The position numbers and the translations under genes are program-made. The notes beneath the pieces are model-generated. The model saw nothing but the letters and a program-made list of their open reading frames with translations. It did no database searches and was not told the origin of the DNA. A stretch of 64,000 bases of DNA, from the IMG/VR virus record IMGVR_UViG_3300025930_000008, positions 32,001 through 96,000 of that record; one strand, written 5' to 3'. The stretch comes from a virus. Shown piece after piece: positions 4,776 through 15,668 of this stretch (its first letter is position 1; each line of letters opens with the position of its first letter).

Positions 4776-5134
4776 TCGGCGTAGCCAGGCTCAGGGTTAG
4801 AAGGTTCTTCGTTATCCATCCTGCGTAGACGCAGAACCATTTCACGAAGTTCCTTATCAGCCTTGTCCTGCGCTGCCTCAGTACGTGACGACTGCCAGCT
4901 TGACCAGTGAGCCACAACAATAGCATACAATGATAGCCAGGTAACAAAGAGAACTTGGTCACCAAAAGCTAAGGCTAATGGTATAGAAACTATCAGCCAG
5001 AAGATAGCAAACCAGCCGTGCAATCTCATGGCATGCTGTGAGTCAGCTAACCAGTTATGTACCTTCTTCATACATATTACATTGAGTTGTGAATGAAAAC
5101 AGTAGGCGGGATTCTGTTCTATCCATGCATCCAT
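4766..5134 (-). CDS. Two-TM membrane protein (holin-like); start uncertain
   Basis: Two hydrophobic segments then charged tail; upstream of the M15 lysin. Confidence 0.5.
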   Translation of the reverse strand: MDAWIEQNPAYCFHSQLNVICMKKVHNWLADSQHAMRLHGWFAIFWLIVSIPLALAFGDQVLFVTWLSLYAIVVAHWSSWQSSRTEAAQDKADKELREMVLRLRRMDNEEPSNPEPGYADGE

Positions 5135-5401
5135 CTATGCTCTCCACCTAGGGGATGCCCTTCCCCGGCTTGAGATTGCATCGCTTCGCTGACGGCAGAG
5201 GTACAAGCGCCCGCACCTATTTGTTGTGGCGGTAGGCGACCGCCTGTCGCTAAGGCTCCCTCCATTTTTACCCGCGCTCGTATCCCTTCCAGGGGATATG
5301 GCTCACGCAATGTCCCGACCTTCCTCGATATTTCTACCGCGCATGGTCGTAATCATTCACACTTAATGTTTATCGTCCACCAATAAACATATTATCGCCT
5401 C

Positions 5402-7604: not shown

Positions 7605-7607
7605 ATG

Positions 7608-7728
7608 TAGGGACGTTCATTTGTCGCTTTGGGCCACTCCCTATTAGGGGAGGTACGCTCGCCACACGTACAACTGACACGGGTTCAATACCCGCCGCCT
7701 CTTGACACGGGGTATCCGCCCGTCCCTA
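7608..7728 (-). ncRNA. Multi-branched structured RNA (~120 nt)
   Basis: TAGGGACG/CGTCCCTA closing stem; hairpins CGGGT/ACCCG, GTACG/CGTAC, CTCCC/GGGAG. Confidence 0.55.
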
Positions 7729-8100
7729 AGTTCTGTGTTCCTGGCAGAGAAAGTCACCGGGTAGCGCCGGGTCCCCACACTCTGCACAAAGTAGCTCACC
7801 ATCGAGCGGTTGGGAATTCAATGCGTCAACTCTTTCCTTGCCCGTGGCAAGAAGTGCGTACCACTTACGCTTGAACTCGGTATCCTGTAGGTTAACAGAG
7901 CCAAGGTCATGCCAACTGTTCGGTTGCTCCGTATGACCAATACAAATCCAAGCCGAACTATACTTCTTAGTTGTTTTGCCTTCTTTCTCTACGGGTGCAG
8001 CAGGCAAAGTAAACATATACCACTGATTTGCAGCTTCATGCTCAGGATATCGCATCTTCTTCGCTATCGTTTTGTTACGCAGTTCACGAATGTTACCCAT
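7726..8100 (-). CDS. Hypothetical protein with variant (GDFLC) Zn-finger
   Basis: CAECG...GDFLCQEHR. Confidence 0.65.
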   Translation of the reverse strand: MGNIRELRNKTIAKKMRYPEHEAANQWYMFTLPAAPVEKEGKTTKKYSSAWICIGHTEQPNSWHDLGSVNLQDTEFKRKWYALLATGKERVDALNSQPLDGELLCAECGDPALPGDFLCQEHRT

Positions 8101-8103
8101 CAA

Positions 8104-8881: not shown

Positions 8882-9123
8882 ATAATCTTCCTATCCATGG
8901 CGACAATCTTACCACGGCCATTGAAATCGTGCTGTCTCAACGTCCAATAGATCGTAGGCTCATCAATATCCTCCGCCTTAGGTTTAGTTAGCTGCCAGCG
9001 TCTGGAATGCGTCCGACAAAATACCTTGCCAGGGACCACTACATGCCCACAGACATAACACATACCCGTACTATCACGTCCATGACGCTTAGGATTAAGC
9101 TCACGAAATAGTTCCTTGGTCAT
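8851..9123 (-). CDS. Hypothetical protein with CxxC...CxxH finger
   Basis: MTKELF...CYVCG...FCRTH; stop inside tRNA-Gln(CTG). Confidence 0.5.
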   Translation of the reverse strand: MTKELFRELNPKRHGRDSTGMCYVCGHVVVPGKVFCRTHSRRWQLTKPKAEDIDEPTIYWTLRQHDFNGRGKIVAMDRKIIAEWCNWKHA

Positions 9124-9125
9124 AG

Positions 9126-9207
9126 TACCGGGAGCGGGATTTGAACCCGCACGCTTATCAGGCATCGGGGTTTGAGGCCGACGTGTCTACCATTCCACCA
9201 TCCCGGC
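9126..9207 (-). tRNA. tRNA-Leu(CAA)
   Basis: TCGGC-CT CAA AC-CCCGA; long variable arm. Confidence 0.9.
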
Positions 9208-9215
9208 ATAGGTTA

Positions 9216-9287
9216 TAGCGCGACGGGGAATCGAACCCCGGTTACAGGCTTGAAAGGCCCGCGTCCTAACCATTAAACGACCGCGCC
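9216..9287 (-). tRNA. tRNA-Glu(TTC)
   Basis: CGGGC-CT TTC AA-GCCTG. Confidence 0.93.
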
Positions 9288-9363
9288 TAGCGAGAGAGTC
9301 GGATGAAGTGAACACGCAGCGTGTTCTATGAGGGTAGGATAACCGCTCTCTCATACCTACCAA

Positions 9364-9436
9364 TGGGCACGGTTGGAATCGAACCAACGACTTCCACCTT
9401 ATCAGAGTGGCGCTCTAACCGCTGAACTACGTGCCC
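9364..9436 (-). tRNA. tRNA-Ile(GAT)
   Basis: CCACT-CT GAT AA-GGTGG. Confidence 0.95.
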
Positions 9437-9437
9437 G

Positions 9438-10175
9438 TTAGGGTAATTGCCTTAGAGAATGCTTGCCCATCGGGATGCAAGCCTCACCATCATCATTCAA
9501 GATAGTCTCCAAGTCCTCAACTCGTAAGAAACAATCTCCGTCCAGACCCCAGGTCTTGCCCCAGGAGTTGCGCAAGCGTACCACATGAAGCTCGCCGTGT
9601 CCAGGGAATCGACGCTTGAGGGCATGACCGCGTACACAAATAGCATGACCACCGACGTGCTGTCCAGAAATGTCAAGCAGCCCGGAAGGGTCCGGGTCAA
9701 ACATGCTATCGCGCCACCAAATGCCAATTTCCACGACACCGTGGTTAGATAAGGTGGCTAGTACGTCATCAATGCTGAACGCCCAACGGTATGAGTCAAT
9801 GAACCCATACTGTTGCATGATCTTCGCACCTGACAATACAGAAGTACCATCGTTGTGCGGATTAGCGCCAGGGTATGCTCCACCCGGCCAAGGATCATTC
9901 TTTTGAGCTTCCCAATAGACCTTTTGCTCTGCAAAGCTATTGGAAATACCTCGCGTGTGATCTTTGTACGCTGAGGCGCAGTGGCTCCATGAGAAACCTA
10001 CACAAGCACCCTCTTGTCCCTGGTCTAACCAGACTGGACACTGCCAAGTCTTAGTCTTTAGCGTCTCGGGGACCAGACCACGGATATCGTAGTCCTTTGA
10101 GCGGTCATCGAACTCTTGGAGTCTATCGAGCCGCCTGTCTTGTGTATCTGTACCGTCGCGTAGAGTAGGCATCAC
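9438..10175 (-). CDS. Papain-family (C1A-like) cysteine peptidase
   Basis: DQGQEGACVGFS, GGHA, RNSWG catalytic motifs. Confidence 0.9.
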   Translation of the reverse strand: MMPTLRDGTDTQDRRLDRLQEFDDRSKDYDIRGLVPETLKTKTWQCPVWLDQGQEGACVGFSWSHCASAYKDHTRGISNSFAEQKVYWEAQKNDPWPGGAYPGANPHNDGTSVLSGAKIMQQYGFIDSYRWAFSIDDVLATLSNHGVVEIGIWWRDSMFDPDPSGLLDISGQHVGGHAICVRGHALKRRFPGHGELHVVRLRNSWGKTWGLDGDCFLRVEDLETILNDDGEACIPMGKHSLRQLP

Positions 10176-10194
10176 CCATTACGCTACGGAGGCA

Positions 10195-10266
10195 TGGCGA
10201 ATATTGGAGTCGAACCAATGACGCGAGGTTCTTCAGACCTCCGCTCTACCACTGAGCTAATTCGCC
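10195..10266 (-). tRNA. tRNA-Phe(GAA)
   Basis: GAGGT-CT GAA GA-ACCTC. Confidence 0.95.
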
Positions 10267-10348
10267 AAGTGAAGGCGGTTCGCCCCGCACCTTACGAACC
10301 CGAATCGTACGCGGTGGGCATAGGACACTAGTAATCCATTACCGCCAG

Positions 10349-10438
10349 CGGAGAGTGTAGGATTCGAACCCACGCGCCGGTTCAAGGCCGACCAACGGTT
10401 TTCAAGACCGCCCCAATAGTCCACTCTGGCAACTCTCC
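10349..10438 (-). tRNA. tRNA-Ser(TGA)
   Basis: GCGGT-CT TGA AA-ACCGT; long variable arm. Confidence 0.95.
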
Positions 10439-10439
10439 A

Positions 10440-10872
10440 TGTCGTGTATAAATAAGCTGCGAGAGGCATAGCGTCCGCAGCTAAGATAGCCCGAATTGCA
10501 AGGTAAAGGTCAGGCCCTAGGCTCATCTGGCACAGCCGGGGTGTCCGTCCCTACGTAGGTTCATTCCAGGCCACGACTACCTAGCTGAAACCTATACCTC
10601 GGAGGCGTTCGCAGCCCCAAGCGGGTGAAGAACCACTTCAACCTTTAAGTTTAGAAACCTCCTGTTCGATGACAAATGATAGACATTTCAACCGACCTGA
10701 GCGTGTCCGTGGATACTGTGTTCGCACGCAGCGGTCAAGCACTCGGCCCCATATCCTTTTCGGCTGGCTACTCCGTCGCCCTTGCACAGTCATAGGTTTC
10801 TAAGGGTTCCCGCCCTCCACCTAATCTTCCCGCACAGTATGTGTCAGTCTATAAGCCTCAGGTTCTCAGCCA
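10440..10872 (-). ncRNA. Large pseudoknotted structured RNA candidate
   Basis: ~430 nt without a credible ORF; three long-range helices, two of them crossing. Confidence 0.55.
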
Positions 10873-11094
10873 CTATTGGCCCTGTCCTAACCACCCTTGT
10901 AGGTGACTTTTATCTGCGACAACCTCTACATTGAGAGGGTCCCATGGTTGGGGCTGATCCCGTAGTGATTCATCCTCGGGATTTTCTGCCACAATCCAAG
11001 TGATGCCAGGATCGCTGTGAGCATACTCCCCCCAATACTTCAATGCATCGGCTTCGCTCACCACTCGGCCATACAGACCGTAGTAGTGATTCAA
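10873..11094 (-). CDS. Hypothetical protein (start uncertain)
   Basis: Open frame between tRNA-Cys and the ncRNA; TTG start assumed. Confidence 0.4.
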   Translation of the reverse strand: MNHYYGLYGRVVSEADALKYWGEYAHSDPGITWIVAENPEDESLRDQPQPWDPLNVEVVADKSHLQGWLGQGQ

Positions 11095-11121
11095 GATAAG
11101 GTATCTGACCTTAGTCTTGCA

Positions 11122-11192
11122 AGGCAAGGACGGGAGTCGAACCCGTGTTACAGGTTTTGCAGACCCGCGCGTAGCCATTCCGCCACCTTGCC
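11122..11192 (-). tRNA. tRNA-Cys(GCA)
   Basis: CGGGT-CT GCA AA-ACCTG; U73. Confidence 0.95.
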
Positions 11193-11306
11193 ATTACGTC
11201 GTAGACATTCCTCACGGTCACAATTACATGCGTTCTGACAAACGAAACCCTTGTGACACTCACAGTCTTTGATGGGCTGTTCACAAATAGTACATTTCCA
11301 TACCAT
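11148..11306 (-). CDS. Small Cys-rich protein
   Basis: MVWKCTICEQPIKDCECHKGFVCQNACNC; stop inside tRNA-Cys. Confidence 0.45.
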   Translation of the reverse strand: MVWKCTICEQPIKDCECHKGFVCQNACNCDREECLRRNGKVAEWLRAGLQNL

Positions 11307-11308
11307 AG

Positions 11309-11380
11309 CTCGCCGGGTAGGACTTGAACCTACAACCATTCGGTTAACAGCCGAACGCTCTGCCATTGAGCTACCGGCGA
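11309..11380 (-). tRNA. tRNA-Asn(GTT)
   Basis: TTCGG-CT GTT AA-CCGAA. Confidence 0.95.
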
Positions 11381-11631
11381 CTGTTGATCCAACTATCTAG
11401 ACACGCCTTATGAGTGGGCAGTAACTCCCAATCAGCGTGCCAAGTACCCTGCACAATGTCAAAGGTTTCCGTACCTTCGTCTGACCACTCGCCACCCATG
11501 CGTTGTATTTTACACGGGATTCCCTGGCGTCCTTCCTGAGCCTGTTCAACTGTAATGATACGCCAGATCGCACATTCGCTTTTATCAAAGCGGTAGTTTG
11601 CATATATTCTACCGACTAGCGGCTCTTTCAT
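11371..11631 (-). CDS. Hypothetical protein
   Basis: 86-aa ORF filling the gap; stop at tRNA-Asn nt 8-10. Confidence 0.55.
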   Translation of the reverse strand: MKEPLVGRIYANYRFDKSECAIWRIITVEQAQEGRQGIPCKIQRMGGEWSDEGTETFDIVQGTWHADWELLPTHKACLDSWINSRR

Positions 11632-11632
11632 A

Positions 11633-11705
11633 TGCCCCCAACAGGGATCGAACCTGTGACCTTGAGATTAAGAGTCTCCTGCTCTACCGGCTGAGCTATA
11701 GGGGC
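11633..11705 (-). tRNA. tRNA-Lys(CTT)
   Basis: GGAGA-CT CTT AA-TCTCA. Confidence 0.93.
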
Positions 11706-11769
11706 GATGATTGGTCATTCCCCTTACCCCTAGGGAATCGTTACTGGATGGGCAACCAATCAAGTTGTA

Positions 11770-11849
11770 TGGCGGGTGGAGGAATCGAACCTCATTACGC
11801 TCTCGCCAGCTAGGTTATGAGCCTTGCTGCCCAAACCTGGGCACCCGCG
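11770..11849 (-). tRNA. Atypical CAT tRNA (initiator-like)
   Basis: CGCGGGTG 5' end with unpaired C1, shrunken D-arm, CTCATAA loop, long variable region, TTCGATT T-loop. Confidence 0.7.
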
Positions 11850-11863
11850 TCGTAAATTTGCTA

Positions 11864-11949
11864 CGGAGAGTGGGGGATTTGAACCCCCGGTACCCACTGG
11901 ATACTCCGTCTTAGCAGGACGGTGCATTAAGCCACTCTGCCAACTCTCC
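11864..11949 (-). tRNA. tRNA-Ser(GCT)
   Basis: CCGTC-CT GCT AA-GACGG. Confidence 0.95.
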
Positions 11950-12135
11950 CTGTGTGATACGTGGCACCCACGTACCCCTTTTAACTAAGGCGAAAAACTC
12001 TATCAACGTACACTTAGAACTATCCGTCAATCCATCTACACGGCCGTCTGTGTAAGTCCAATAAACTCTTTCCGTCTTAGGATCATAGAGATAATCCTTC
12101 ACCATTGCGTTCGCTTCCCAACGAAAAGAAATCAT
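11911..12135 (-). CDS. Hypothetical protein
   Basis: 74-aa ORF; stop in the tRNA-Ser anticodon loop. Confidence 0.45.
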   Translation of the reverse strand: MISFRWEANAMVKDYLYDPKTERVYWTYTDGRVDGLTDSSKCTLIEFFALVKRGTWVPRITQGELAEWLNAPSC

Positions 12136-12136
12136 A

Positions 12137-12208
12137 CGGCCCCGGTGAGAATCGAACTCACATCTATCCCTTAGGAGGGGATCGTTCTGTCCATTATACT
12201 ACAGGGCC
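12137..12208 (-). tRNA. tRNA-Arg(CCT)
   Basis: ATCCC-CT CCT AA-GGGAT. Confidence 0.9.
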
Positions 12209-12264
12209 AGAAGCAGGGCATTTCAGCCCCACCCACGTCACCGCTTTAGGACAACGGCTGCCTG

Positions 12265-12468
12265 TCAGATATCCATAGCGCACTGGTTAACGCAATCCCG
12301 ACAACAATTGCACACCGTATCGTAATCGCCACCGATTTCCTCTGCATACGGACAGCCATGAGGAATCTCTCCCTCATTACCGCAGTTACAGAGCGGACTG
12401 ATTGCCGATAACAACCAGTCTTTGACAACCTGCTTGTAAATATGCATACGTATTTGCACAGCAGGCAT
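12265..12468 (-). CDS. Small Cys-rich protein
   Basis: CNCG...HGCPYAEEI...CNCCRDCVNQCAMDI. Confidence 0.55.
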   Translation of the reverse strand: MPAVQIRMHIYKQVVKDWLLSAISPLCNCGNEGEIPHGCPYAEEIGGDYDTVCNCCRDCVNQCAMDI

Positions 12469-12540
12469 AGGCCAGGATGGATTTGAACCATCGACCCGCA
12501 CCTTATAAGAGTGCCGCTCTAACCCCTGAGCTACTGGCCC
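12468..12540 (-). tRNA. tRNA-Ile(TAT)
   Basis: GCACT-CT TAT AA-GGTGC; body resembles tRNA-Ile(GAT). Confidence 0.92.
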
Positions 12541-12549
12541 AATTAGTTA

Positions 12550-12728
12550 GAGGATCGTATATGGGGGACTTACTTCATGGATAGGTACGCACTACGCCGG
12601 GGCGACCACACCCCTCTCGGCCAGCACGCATACTCCTAGATGTAGTCAACATCGTTAGTGACCTATATCAATCCGCTTACCCTTATCCCACCTGCGCACT
12701 GTGGGCGGCAATTATCCGTCCGATCCTC
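12550..12728 (-). ncRNA. Structured RNA (~180 nt)
   Basis: GAGGATCG/CGATCCTC closing stem fills the Thr-Ile spacer; internal CCCAC/GTGGG, GATGT/ACATC, GGGG/CCCC hairpins. Confidence 0.55.
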
Positions 12729-12729
12729 A

Positions 12730-12801
12730 AGCCCGCGAGGGGAATCGAACCCCTATCCCTGCTTTACGAAAGCAGTATAATAGCCGTTATACTACGCGGG
12801 C
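12730..12801 (-). tRNA. tRNA-Thr(CGT)
   Basis: CTGCT-TT CGT AA-AGCAG. Confidence 0.92.
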
Positions 12802-12899
12802 GACTTACTTATCAGGCACAATCATAGTGCCTTTACAGATGGGACATACCCTACCATTGTTAAGGATGCCCCCTTTCATCTTGCATTTACAATCCATAG

Positions 12900-13349
12900 T
12901 GGAGGTGGGCGGAATTGAACCGCCGTCCTGCGTACACTTGTTGACTCAGTTTCTAGCAGCTTTGTAATACAATACTGGCAACCGGTTCTGAGCCGCCTAC
13001 CCTTACTCTACCACAAGATACGGCAGACTCATGCTAGTGACTGTTTGAAATAGTCGGGAGCAGCCTGTTGTTCCGTACACCCTGCTGTCGAGATTACTCA
13101 CCACGCAATGGAAATACCATTAGAGTGGAGCCGAGTAAGCCAATTAGATTGACCGTCTAATCTTTCCAAACAAGGATTTGGGACTTTATACCCCGGCCAC
13201 GCTTTCTGTTCCTAGGTCCGTGGCTCCTGACCCGAGCGGACTAAGCCGCTAGAGCAAACGTATGAGTGTCTGCAATTATTGTTAGTGGTAGGCCACTACC
13301 CGCTGCACTAAGGCAACCGCATCTTACACAGTCGATGCCTGTCACCCCC
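12900..13349 (-). ncRNA. ssrA: tmRNA; tag reading frame ADTHTFALAA* at 13273-13241
   Basis: 5' GGGGGTGACAGGCATCGAC; 3' GACGGCGGTTCAATTCCGCCCACCTCCA; G3:U70; AATAATT before GCA resume codon; ALAA-stop. Confidence 0.95.
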
Positions 13350-13553
13350 ATGATTATCAGCCTCCACCTAGCCTTATTAGACTAACGTCTAGCTTACGGC
13401 CTCGCTCTAGATTTGCTGACACGGAGCGAATTAAAGTTTATGCCGGATTTCTTGGACGGCTCCGGCAACCGCCCATAAGGAGTTTATGAAAGGTGGTACC
13501 TCAACAAGACCGCGATATTCGCCTTGTTCCTCTCATAGACTCCACCAAGTTAT

Positions 13554-13686
13554 ACGAGAGTCCACTGTGCCGTAGCCACTCCGAACGGTTCCTGCCGTCC
13601 CGCACTAGCCTCACGGTCTAGGCGATGGTCGGGAGACAATCTCCCCCTTGGGGCAGTCCATCCCAACTTAGAAGTAGAACTCTCTA
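13554..13686 (-). ncRNA. Structured RNA (~130 nt) with CAGGAA hairpin
   Basis: GAGAGTT/GACTCTC closing stem; ACGG-CAGGAA-CCGT. Confidence 0.5.
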
Positions 13687-13687
13687 G

Positions 13688-13757
13688 TAGACCGGGCAGG
13701 ATTCGAACCTGCAATGAACAATGATAAAGATTGTTTGTGTACCGTACACACCGGTCA
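13688..13757 (-). tRNA. tRNA-Pyl-shaped element with TTA (ochre) anticodon
   Basis: TGACCGG T GTGT ACGGT ACAC A AACAAT CTTTATC ATTGTT CATT GCAGG TTCGAAT CCTGC CCGGTCT A. Confidence 0.7.
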
Positions 13758-13824
13758 AGCCCCGGCATAGGGTTCCCGCCCTATGTTACTCCGGGGTCGT
13801 CCACGGACAATTAGTCGATGGACA

Positions 13825-13896
13825 TGGGCCGCACTGGAATCGAACCAGTGACTTCCTGCGTGTCGAGCAGGCGTTCTACCGCTGAACTAGCGGCCC
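13825..13896 (-). tRNA. tRNA-Val(GAC)
   Basis: CCTGC-TC GAC AC-GCAGG (C33). Confidence 0.9.
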
Positions 13897-13995
13897 TAGT
13901 TACGTGAGCTAGCTTACTCACTTCGCTAGCTCACACCCAAAACAACGCCTGATTCTGACGATGCGTGAGCGGGATGGTTGACCAACCAGAACAAC

Positions 13996-14024
13996 AGTTT
14001 AGCCGATGTTCTGGCGACTGTCAA
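13996..14024 (-). promoter_or_regulatory. Sigma-A/70-type promoter
   Basis: TTGACA-17 nt-TAAACT upstream of Val(GAC), the ochre element and tmRNA. Confidence 0.7.
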
Positions 14025-14026
14025 GC

Positions 14027-14188
14027 TTATCGGGACGAGAGGTAAACGCCTTCTATCTTTGCCCCACTGTACTCCTGCTTGTCAATCGCGTCTGCAACAG
14101 CAAGACCAACATCTTGGCGCAAGTCAAACTTCTTGATAGGCGCCAACGTCGTCGGAATGGTGATGACCACCGTGATTGTATTATCCAT
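14027..14188 (-). CDS. 53-aa hypothetical protein
   Basis: MDNTITVVITIPTTLAPIKKFDLRQDVG...; not in ORF track. Confidence 0.45.
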   Translation of the reverse strand: MDNTITVVITIPTTLAPIKKFDLRQDVGLAVADAIDKQEYSGAKIEGVYLSSR

Positions 14189-14214
14189 GCTAAAAACGTA
14201 GCACGACTGTCAAG

Positions 14215-14286
14215 TGGACCCGGCTGGGATCGAACCAGCGACCTTCTGCTTGTAAGGCAGACGTTCTCCCACTAAACTACGGGTCC
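14215..14286 (-). tRNA. tRNA-Val(TAC)
   Basis: TCTGC-CT TAC AA-GCAGA. Confidence 0.93.
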
Positions 14287-14289
14287 GCA

Positions 14290-14365
14290 GCAGGCTCCCT
14301 CATGGGGCGTACCTCCCATAGACACTACCCGACAGGTTCCCGCCTGTCAAGGCGAGGGAACCTGC
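14290..14365 (-). ncRNA. Three-way-junction RNA with CGGGAA hairpin
   Basis: GCAGGTTCCCTC/GAGGGAGCCTGC stem enclosing GACAGG-CGGGAA-CCTGTC and ATGGG/CCCAT. Confidence 0.55.
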
Positions 14366-14427
14366 GTGCTTAATCCCCGTGGGTACGCACGGATTAGGTA
14401 CTGCGATGGCCCCTGACTGATGGGCAG

Positions 14428-14499
14428 AGCCGTCACCGGGAATCGAACCCGGCTTACTAACTTACCAAGCTAGGGTAATATCCGATATACTATGACGGC
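14428..14499 (-). tRNA. tRNA-Thr(GGT)
   Basis: CTAGC-TT GGT AA-GTTAG. Confidence 0.9.
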
Positions 14500-14502
14500 T
14501 TA

Positions 14503-14576
<74 letters not shown>

Positions 14577-14741
14577 TTACAAATGACTGAATACATAAGT
14601 CACAGCAGAGATACCATGACTAATGAAACTCATGATACCGGTGGCAGCAGCCACCTTGAGGTACCACAATTCCTTACGGCTGAGCGTAACCTTTTCCTCA
14701 GCCTTCTTTATGGCTTTAAGTTTCGCTTCTTCCTTGTCCAT
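14577..14741 (-). CDS. Small membrane protein
   Basis: MDKEEAKL... charged N-terminus and one C-terminal TM segment. Confidence 0.5.
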   Translation of the reverse strand: MDKEEAKLKAIKKAEEKVTLSRKELWYLKVAAATGIMSFISHGISAVTYVFSHL

Positions 14742-15066
14742 TGAGCGCCTTGCTTTGACGCCGCTTATACCCAAAGATCAAGTAGAGCGCGACATTCCCT
14801 GCGATGAATCCCACCGCATTCAGCGGGATATAGTAGGAAAACCCTGTGTCAAGTCTCTCAACGTTGTTAGTCAACGCTGACGTGGCTAAGAGCAGATACG
14901 AAACGGCAATGAGTACAACATGGAGCGGCAGCAGAGCTACATATCCTCCCTGCTTGCGCAGTTTGAGGTAGCTCTGGGTATATACCACCACAATCAGCAC
15001 CACAAACGACACAATGCCTCCGTACAGAAAGATATTCAAGTATCGGAGGCCATCCAAAATGCTCAT
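14716..15066 (-). CDS. Three-TM membrane protein
   Basis: Three hydrophobic segments, basic tail. Confidence 0.65.
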   Translation of the reverse strand: MSILDGLRYLNIFLYGGIVSFVVLIVVVYTQSYLKLRKQGGYVALLPLHVVLIAVSYLLLATSALTNNVERLDTGFSYYIPLNAVGFIAGNVALYLIFGYKRRQSKALNGQGRSET

Positions 15067-15080
15067 GCTCTATTACCTAG

Positions 15081-15151
15081 CGGGGGATCGAGGATTTGAA
15101 CCCCGAAGTTCGGGTTTGGAGGCCGACAGTTTACCATTAGCTTAATCCCCC
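15081..15151 (-). tRNA. tRNA-Trp(CCA)
   Basis: TCGGC-CT CCA AA-CCCGA; G73. Confidence 0.9.
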
Positions 15152-15452
15152 AGGAGCGCACGGAGGGAGCGCGAGATTCTCTCACCCCTCGGTTATGTGA
15201 ACAGACTTGTCATACGCCGACTTCACGCGGGCGGATTCTAACCATAGACCCTAAGGCGTATAGTTCATATGTGACTATACCGCGAAGGGACTCCGTTTCC
15301 ATCGAATACTCCTGAACGCATGGTGCCATCTGAAACAATCGTCATTGCCACGCCGCTTTTCGCTACTTGTATACTGCCCTCCGGGGATCAATCCATCCAG
15401 ACGCATACGTTTGCTCGCTACAGCCGTGCGCATGTATTGAGCAATGACGAAG

Positions 15453-15534
15453 TACGCCCGGAGGGACTTGAACCCCCACACCTTTCGGCATCAGGACCTA
15501 AACCTGACGTGTCTACCGATTCCACCACGGGCGC
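15453..15534 (-). tRNA. tRNA-Leu(TAG)
   Basis: TCAGG-TT TAG GT-CCTGA. Confidence 0.93.
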
Positions 15535-15668
15535 TAGTACCGATAACGTTCAAGGAAGGGCTGTTATCGGTGTTATCGTGCGACTGCCATTGGACCATAT
15601 TCATAGTCGAGAGCCTTGCGCCGCTGCATGATACCCCGGATTCCCGTCCGGCATATTCATGCCTGATA

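Follow-up and report, generated by a model that had tools for sequence, protein, structure and literature searches.

A putative structured RNA of about 140 nt upstream of tRNA-Ser(UGA) in the tRNA array of uncultured phages

Small RNAs without an assigned role, such as RNAC and RNAD of phage T4, are long familiar from phage tRNA clusters, which also occur near the giant RNAs GOLLD and ROOL. In the T4 annotation, RNAC (species 1; 139 nt) and RNAD (species 2; 119 nt) stand beside tRNA-Arg, and the roles of both remain unknown (PMC3014915; PMC9697503). GOLLD and ROOL are often encoded near tRNA islands; GOLLD joins a conserved 3' region to a variable 5' region, and many GOLLD RNAs are longer than 800 nt (PMC12286853).

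Here, we describe a gene-free gap of 433 nt (10440..10872, minus strand) in the tRNA array of an uncultured phage, which the initial annotation had proposed to encode a large pseudoknotted noncoding RNA. Part of that proposal stood, in that a structured noncoding RNA is probably present, but it is unlikely to be a pseudoknotted molecule of 433 nt, and only ~140 nt (10626-10489) proved to be conserved. This conserved module resembles the T4 RNAs in setting and size only. RNAC and RNAD are noncoding, 119-139 nt long, and encoded next to a tRNA on the tRNA strand of a phage tRNA cluster; the module, a putative RNA, likewise measures ~140 nt and lies on the tRNA strand, 15-50 nt from tRNA-Ser. Homology was not found, as a covariance model built from the conserved core (R1), run with filters off against positions 69000-76000 of T4, gave no meaningful match. 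RNAC has a tRNA-like T-arm and a strong folding signal (z = -4.6), whereas the module has neither a T-arm nor a thermodynamic signal. By analogy, the module may be regarded as a small RNA of the RNAC/RNAD kind, and not as a homolog of either. Compared with GOLLD and ROOL, its conserved part is short (~140 nt) and is predicted to form simple hairpins, with no supported pseudoknot and no Rfam match.

Setting of the gap and searches for known genes and RNAs

The window, that is, the whole stretch of 64,000 nt that was analyzed, corresponds to bases 32001-96000 of a 107,022-base IMG/VR virus record with a completeness estimate of 67%, in which the flagged stretch (10440-10872) occurred only once. 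Between 2766 and 16080, the minus strand carried 37 tRNA genes and a tmRNA gene (Rfam, ARAGORN), interspersed with small open reading frames (ORFs) and ORF-free spacers; the G+C content was ~51%. Read along this strand, tRNA-Cys(GCA) (11122..11192; 63 bits to the Rfam tRNA model, also called by ARAGORN) was followed by a small ORF, the gap, tRNA-Ser(UGA) (10348..10438), tRNA-Phe, and a gene for a C1-type (papain-like) peptidase (9438..10175) that lies inside the array. The closest relatives of the peptidase, at 76-99% identity, came from similar arrays, and distant ones, including Streptomyces proteins, were ~54% identical. No terminator-like site was found in 9000-12000. A sigma-70-like site just upstream of the conserved block (10675-10648) matched at 9 of 12 positions; it was given no weight, because the region has fewer such sites than its shuffles.

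The gap had been read as noncoding, and a translated frame across it did not turn up: no ORF covered the gap under translation table 11, 4, or 6 or with TAG read as Q. The alternative codes were tried because the array has a tRNA with a UUA anticodon, a 71-nt, ochre-reading tRNA at 13687-13757 (minus strand; ARAGORN). Stop-codon recoding by this tRNA was rejected for the gap, as codes 6, 4, and TAG=Q opened no convincing frame. Across the window, long standard-code ORFs argue against genome-wide recoding.

Rfam 15 yielded no match in the gap, either with cmscan at gathering thresholds over the window or at E ≤ 10 over 10300-11200. The earlier impression, gained by eye, that RNase P and SRP signatures were lacking agreed with this outcome, as neither had a model match there. 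This included the bacterial and archaeal RNase P models, and a split or second RNase P domain in the gap was rejected on the same ground. Group I and II introns and the self-cleaving ribozymes of Rfam likewise had no match in the gap, and the flanking tRNA-Cys and tRNA-Ser genes are intact, i.e., uninterrupted by an intron. The Infernal comparison with GOLLD, ROOL, raiA, and the intron models that had been recommended was run without a match in the gap, and neither these RNAs nor OLE or other large noncoding RNA families of Rfam matched inside 10440-10872, even at E ≤ 10. Elsewhere in the array, the stretch 5091-5358 (minus strand) matched the archaeal RNase P RNA model (RF00373) over its full length (model positions 1-288), although below threshold (32.9 bits, E = 2.8e-6), which suggests a compact, putatively phage-encoded RNase P RNA within the tRNA array.

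Conservation and predicted fold of the module

Two related loci (L096 and L099) were ~99% identical to the window, and two others (L097 and L098) had peptidases 77-78% identical to that of the window; L097 is cut just before tRNA-Phe and does not contain the flagged stretch. The closest IMG/VR relative by ribonucleotide reductase (L016; 75% identity) has a syntenic array, in which the Cys>Ser(UGA) spacer was 196 nt long, unrelated, and without the module. In L098, by comparison, tRNA-Cys was followed by a 183-nt spacer and tRNA-Ser(UGA). Within the gap, this spacer aligned only with 10626-10494; positions 1335-1490 of L098 were 77-84% identical to the block at 10626-10489, the similarity starting near 10638. 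The module is represented by two independent lineages only, of which L098 is one and the window, with its near-identical strains L096 and L099, the other. When the Cys>Ser spacers of the window and L098 were aligned locally, z reached 46. Among eight other spacer comparisons, z was near 0 in about four or five (Lys>Asn, Ser>Phe, Ile>Glu, Leu>Gln, and His>Lys), and three had a similarity of their own. Judged by these alignments, the shared Cys>Ser block is exceptional against spacers that are mostly unalignable.

The covariance model R1 had matches in the window, L096, L099, and L098 alone (152-180 bits). It found nothing in 39 related loci or in the full records of L016, L017, and L018, nor in the loci picked out by motif scans (68 from genomes and viral contigs, and 71 from a gapped scan of viral contigs); the exact and gapped motif-scan matches in viral and genome contigs were chance matches, which R1 rejected. 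A blastn search of the gap against 50,697 phage records returned nothing beyond tRNAs, and nhmmer and blastn searches against 14 peptidase loci and 80 ribonucleotide reductase loci of IMG/VR gave no match. To date, a single narrow clade of uncultured phages accounts for all occurrences of the module. Elsewhere in the same array, other conserved spacer elements share its operon and strand and likewise form islands amid otherwise unalignable spacers, but they are not its paralogs, as R1 finds no second copy in the window.

As delimited by the alignment to L098 and by R1, the module spans 138 nt (10489..10626, minus strand). Stops were present in six of six frames in both the window and L098, and the alignment of the block holds 1-nt indels; together, these features show that the module is noncoding. 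RNAalifold predicted three hairpins. H1 (10618-10602) has a 5-bp stem and an invariant 7-nt loop, UGCGAAC, which contains a GNRA-type GCGA; H2 (10599-10507) is long and irregular; and H3 (10503-10489) is short. The H1 stem changes from GGGGC/GCCUC to GCCAC/GUGGU with its loop unchanged, so that three of the five pairs differ on both sides, among them G-to-C changes matched by C-to-G changes. H2 had one compensatory pair and several changes on one side only that still allow wobble pairing; one of these, G-C to G-U in L096, is a strain polymorphism. H3 varied compatibly in L098 and in strain L099.

Pairs were counted in a MAFFT alignment of four distinct sequences, which amount effectively to one divergence (two lineages) and from which the fold itself was derived; on this basis, the 46 pairs included 4 compensatory and 10 one-sided changes, with 14 further pair types. 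Of the 181 cells, 98.9% were paired, versus 26-61% with slid partners. Pair changes on both sides numbered 4, compared with 0-1 in the slid controls and 1 in 500 shuffles. Read on the plus strand, the nine G.U pairs would turn into A.C mismatches; because they fit one strand only, the fold belongs to the tRNA strand. Within the aligned sequences, the substitutions in the module are shown to preserve the predicted three-hairpin pairing, and to do so on the tRNA strand only.

The consensus fold lay 10-18 kcal/mol above the minimum free energy (MFE) structure of each sequence. Neither MFE structure was retained as the global fold, as the basal helix of the window's structure is broken in the L098 lineage and the L098 structure is broken in the window lineage. 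Both lineages are also fully compatible with a local hairpin inside H2 (columns 59-98 of alignment A5) that cannot coexist with the predicted fold. This makes the fold of H2 ambiguous, but the hairpin is uninformative because it is invariant. H1 appears to be the firmest element of the modeled fold, and the inner part of H2 is moderately supported.

Long-range pairings, the 5' part, and the 3' hairpin

The complementary segments listed in the initial annotation were all present on the minus strand. Pairs in the gap comprised a perfect 10-bp pair (10803-10794/10660-10651), an 8-bp pair (10840-10833/10720-10713), alternative pairs of 7 bp (10863-10857/10701-10695) and 9 bp (10800-10792/10595-10587), and a "closing helix" of 12 bp with one bulge and G.U pairs (10872-10860/10593-10582). 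A perfect stem of at least 10 bp arose in 5 of 150 dinucleotide shuffles (~3%), at least three stems of at least 8 bp in 7%, and two stems of at least 9 bp in 1.3%; the 10-bp and 9-bp stems are not independent, because one strand is common to both. The closing-helix duplex (-17.6 kcal/mol) was equaled in 22% of the shuffles, and many other 21-mers of the 3' part paired with the 5' part as well or better. Relative to dinucleotide shuffles, the MFE of the whole 433-nt gap had z = +0.55, that of the 3' core z = +0.57, and that of the 5' half z = +1.40, the last folding worse than 94% of its shuffles. By-eye long-range complementarity in GC-balanced spacers is here at or near the chance level.

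When judged by covariation, the long-range helices failed, as L098, the only divergent homolog recovered, lacks the 5' 245 nt that bear their 5' strands. For the closing helix, the 3' strand (10593-10582) falls within an invariant 16-mer, from which the base of H2 is built in both lineages. This strand has no upstream partner in L098, where it pairs locally and tRNA-Cys ends 27 nt before the block. The 10-bp and 8-bp pseudoknot helices lie wholly in the nonconserved 5' part, where its three carrier strains are identical; this identity is uninformative either way, because all differences between the window and L099 (3.2 kb) fall within 10503-10269. The gap is probably not a single large knotted RNA.

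The lineage-specific 5' part (10627..10872, minus strand; ~245 nt) contains the helices of the proposed pseudoknot together with the 5' strand of the closing helix. It has no counterpart in L098 or any other locus, and no similarity elsewhere in the window apart from a CGGGAA-loop motif. The small ORF upstream (10873..11094, minus strand) encodes a TPR-like protein of ~73 aa, and its TAG stop abuts the gap. TPR-repeat proteins matched it weakly, and a homolog of 77 aa (P0122) was 60% identical (E = 8e-21); by tblastn, the ORF was found only in L096 and L099, and neither it nor its alignment matched viral contigs. Judged from its homolog, the small ORF looks like a real gene. L098, L097, and L016 lack both this ORF and the 5' 245 nt, which, being missing together, behave as one insertion/deletion unit. 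The segment 10627-10872 is probably the 3' tail of the small ORF or a spacer belonging to it.

A hairpin with a CGGGAA hexaloop had also been proposed, and it was confirmed at 10817-10802 (10802..10817, minus strand). The motif recurs in the array: five CGGGAA-type hairpins with stems of at least 5 bp and different sequences were found on the array strand of the window (10802-15651). Relatives held further C(G/A)GGAA hexaloop hairpins (three in L016, one in L097, and one in L098), again with unrelated stems, and none was present on the opposite strand of the window or the relatives. This recurrence of the hexaloop on the array strand only, with unrelated stems, suggests a recognition signal at the RNA level.

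On the other side of the module, a three-strain alignment delimited a 35-nt insert (10453..10487, minus strand) with a 7-bp hairpin (10482-10455), which was missing from the near-identical L099 and from L098 and was mismatched in L096. Over 3.2 kb, the window and L099 differ at 45 positions, all of them in a 235-nt patch around tRNA-Ser (10269-10503), with the rest identical, which points to a local recombination or indel hotspot.

A composite reading of the gap and its alternatives

On balance, we favor reading the gap as a composite in which a lineage-specific tail linked to the ORF is followed by a small, conserved, structured RNA and a dispensable hairpin, with the RNA cotranscribed with the tRNAs, processed, and stable. 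The stretch 10872-10627 would be gained and lost with the 73-aa ORF, most simply as the untranslated tail of that gene, and would carry one copy of the CGGGAA-loop hairpin. The stretch 10626-10489 would give rise to a structured RNA of ~140 nt with three hairpins, and 10487-10453 would be a dispensable, strain-variable hairpin. Because 9000-12000 holds no terminator-like site, we infer that the module is transcribed with the tRNAs in one long precursor. Its release would fall to tRNA-processing enzymes: RNase P would cut in front of tRNA-Ser, at its 5' end, and the upstream RNA would undergo 3'-end processing. The module would then persist as a stable small RNA, as for T4 RNAC and RNAD, and its invariant unpaired stretches would bind a partner.

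The module stands directly upstream of tRNA-Ser(UGA) in both lineages, with H3 15 to 50 nt away, and strain differences cluster at the junction of the module and tRNA-Ser. This arrangement would also fit a cis-acting 5' leader of tRNA-Ser(UGA), one that guides or times its folding or its processing by RNase P and is then degraded. Such a leader is unlikely, however, as L016 has the same tRNA-Cys and tRNA-Ser(UGA) neighbors without the module, the distance between module and tRNA varies such that a 35-nt hairpin can be inserted between them, and ~140 nt with invariant loops is far beyond the need of known leaders. Quite improbable, in our view, is that the whole 433 nt forms one GOLLD-like RNA, in which a variable, lineage-specific 5' half with an internal pseudoknot docks through the closing helix onto the conserved 3' core. 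The ORF-free gap, the scarcity among shuffles of a perfect 10-bp stem (3%) or of two stems of at least 9 bp (1.3%), and the complementarity of two upstream segments to the invariant 16-mer of the core would favor it. Yet neither GOLLD and ROOL nor any further Rfam family matches the gap, 94% of shuffles fold better than the 5' half, which travels with an ORF, the closing duplex is at chance level, and the core of L098 stands alone 27 nt past tRNA-Cys, with its closing-helix strand paired locally. A version of the same idea, to which we give equally little credence, is a new GOLLD-like phage RNA with a self-sufficient 3' core of ~140 nt and a lineage-acquired, pseudoknotted 5' extension of ~245 nt that clamps the invariant 16-mer via two alternative segments; if true, the two alternative complementary segments on the 16-mer would suggest a conformational switch.

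It is also conceivable, though very improbable, that the gap is spacer DNA with nothing functional in it and that the shared 140 nt stem from recent exchange between two phages rather than from selection. Spacer pieces come and go freely in the arrays of this clade (the Ser>Phe element, for instance, follows tRNA-Glu in L098 and is deleted in L096), and thermodynamic support is absent for both the gap (z = +0.55) and the core (z = +0.57). Against recent transfer, the block, at ~80% identity, has diverged to the same extent as the peptidase gene and the tRNAs on either side, and all 16 changed paired bases still pair, including the G-to-C with C-to-G swaps in H1. The chance that a small protein gene is concealed in the gap seems close to negligible. 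A 51-aa ORF does exist at 10638-10793 (minus strand), but it had no homolog and no gene call among 5.8 billion proteins, no Shine-Dalgarno sequence was found near its ATG, both lineages have stops in all frames of the conserved part, and alternative codes open nothing convincing.

Under the favored composite reading, the module offers a defined target of ~140 nt for expression work and probing, and an unrelated conserved noncoding module in an array of 37 tRNAs adds evidence that such arrays are operons for more than tRNAs. Two further spacer elements were observed in the array. The Lys(UUU)>Glu(CUC) spacers of the window (7605-8103, minus strand) and L097 (2845-2973) share a strongly conserved island (local score 90, z = 66), which is probably another conserved spacer RNA. 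The Ser>Phe spacer holds an 80-nt element (10268-10347, minus strand) that is ~87% identical to a piece after tRNA-Glu in L098 (3687-3799) and is cleanly deleted in L096, where 1 nt separates tRNA-Ser from tRNA-Phe; lying flush with tRNA 3' ends, the element behaves like a movable mini-element.
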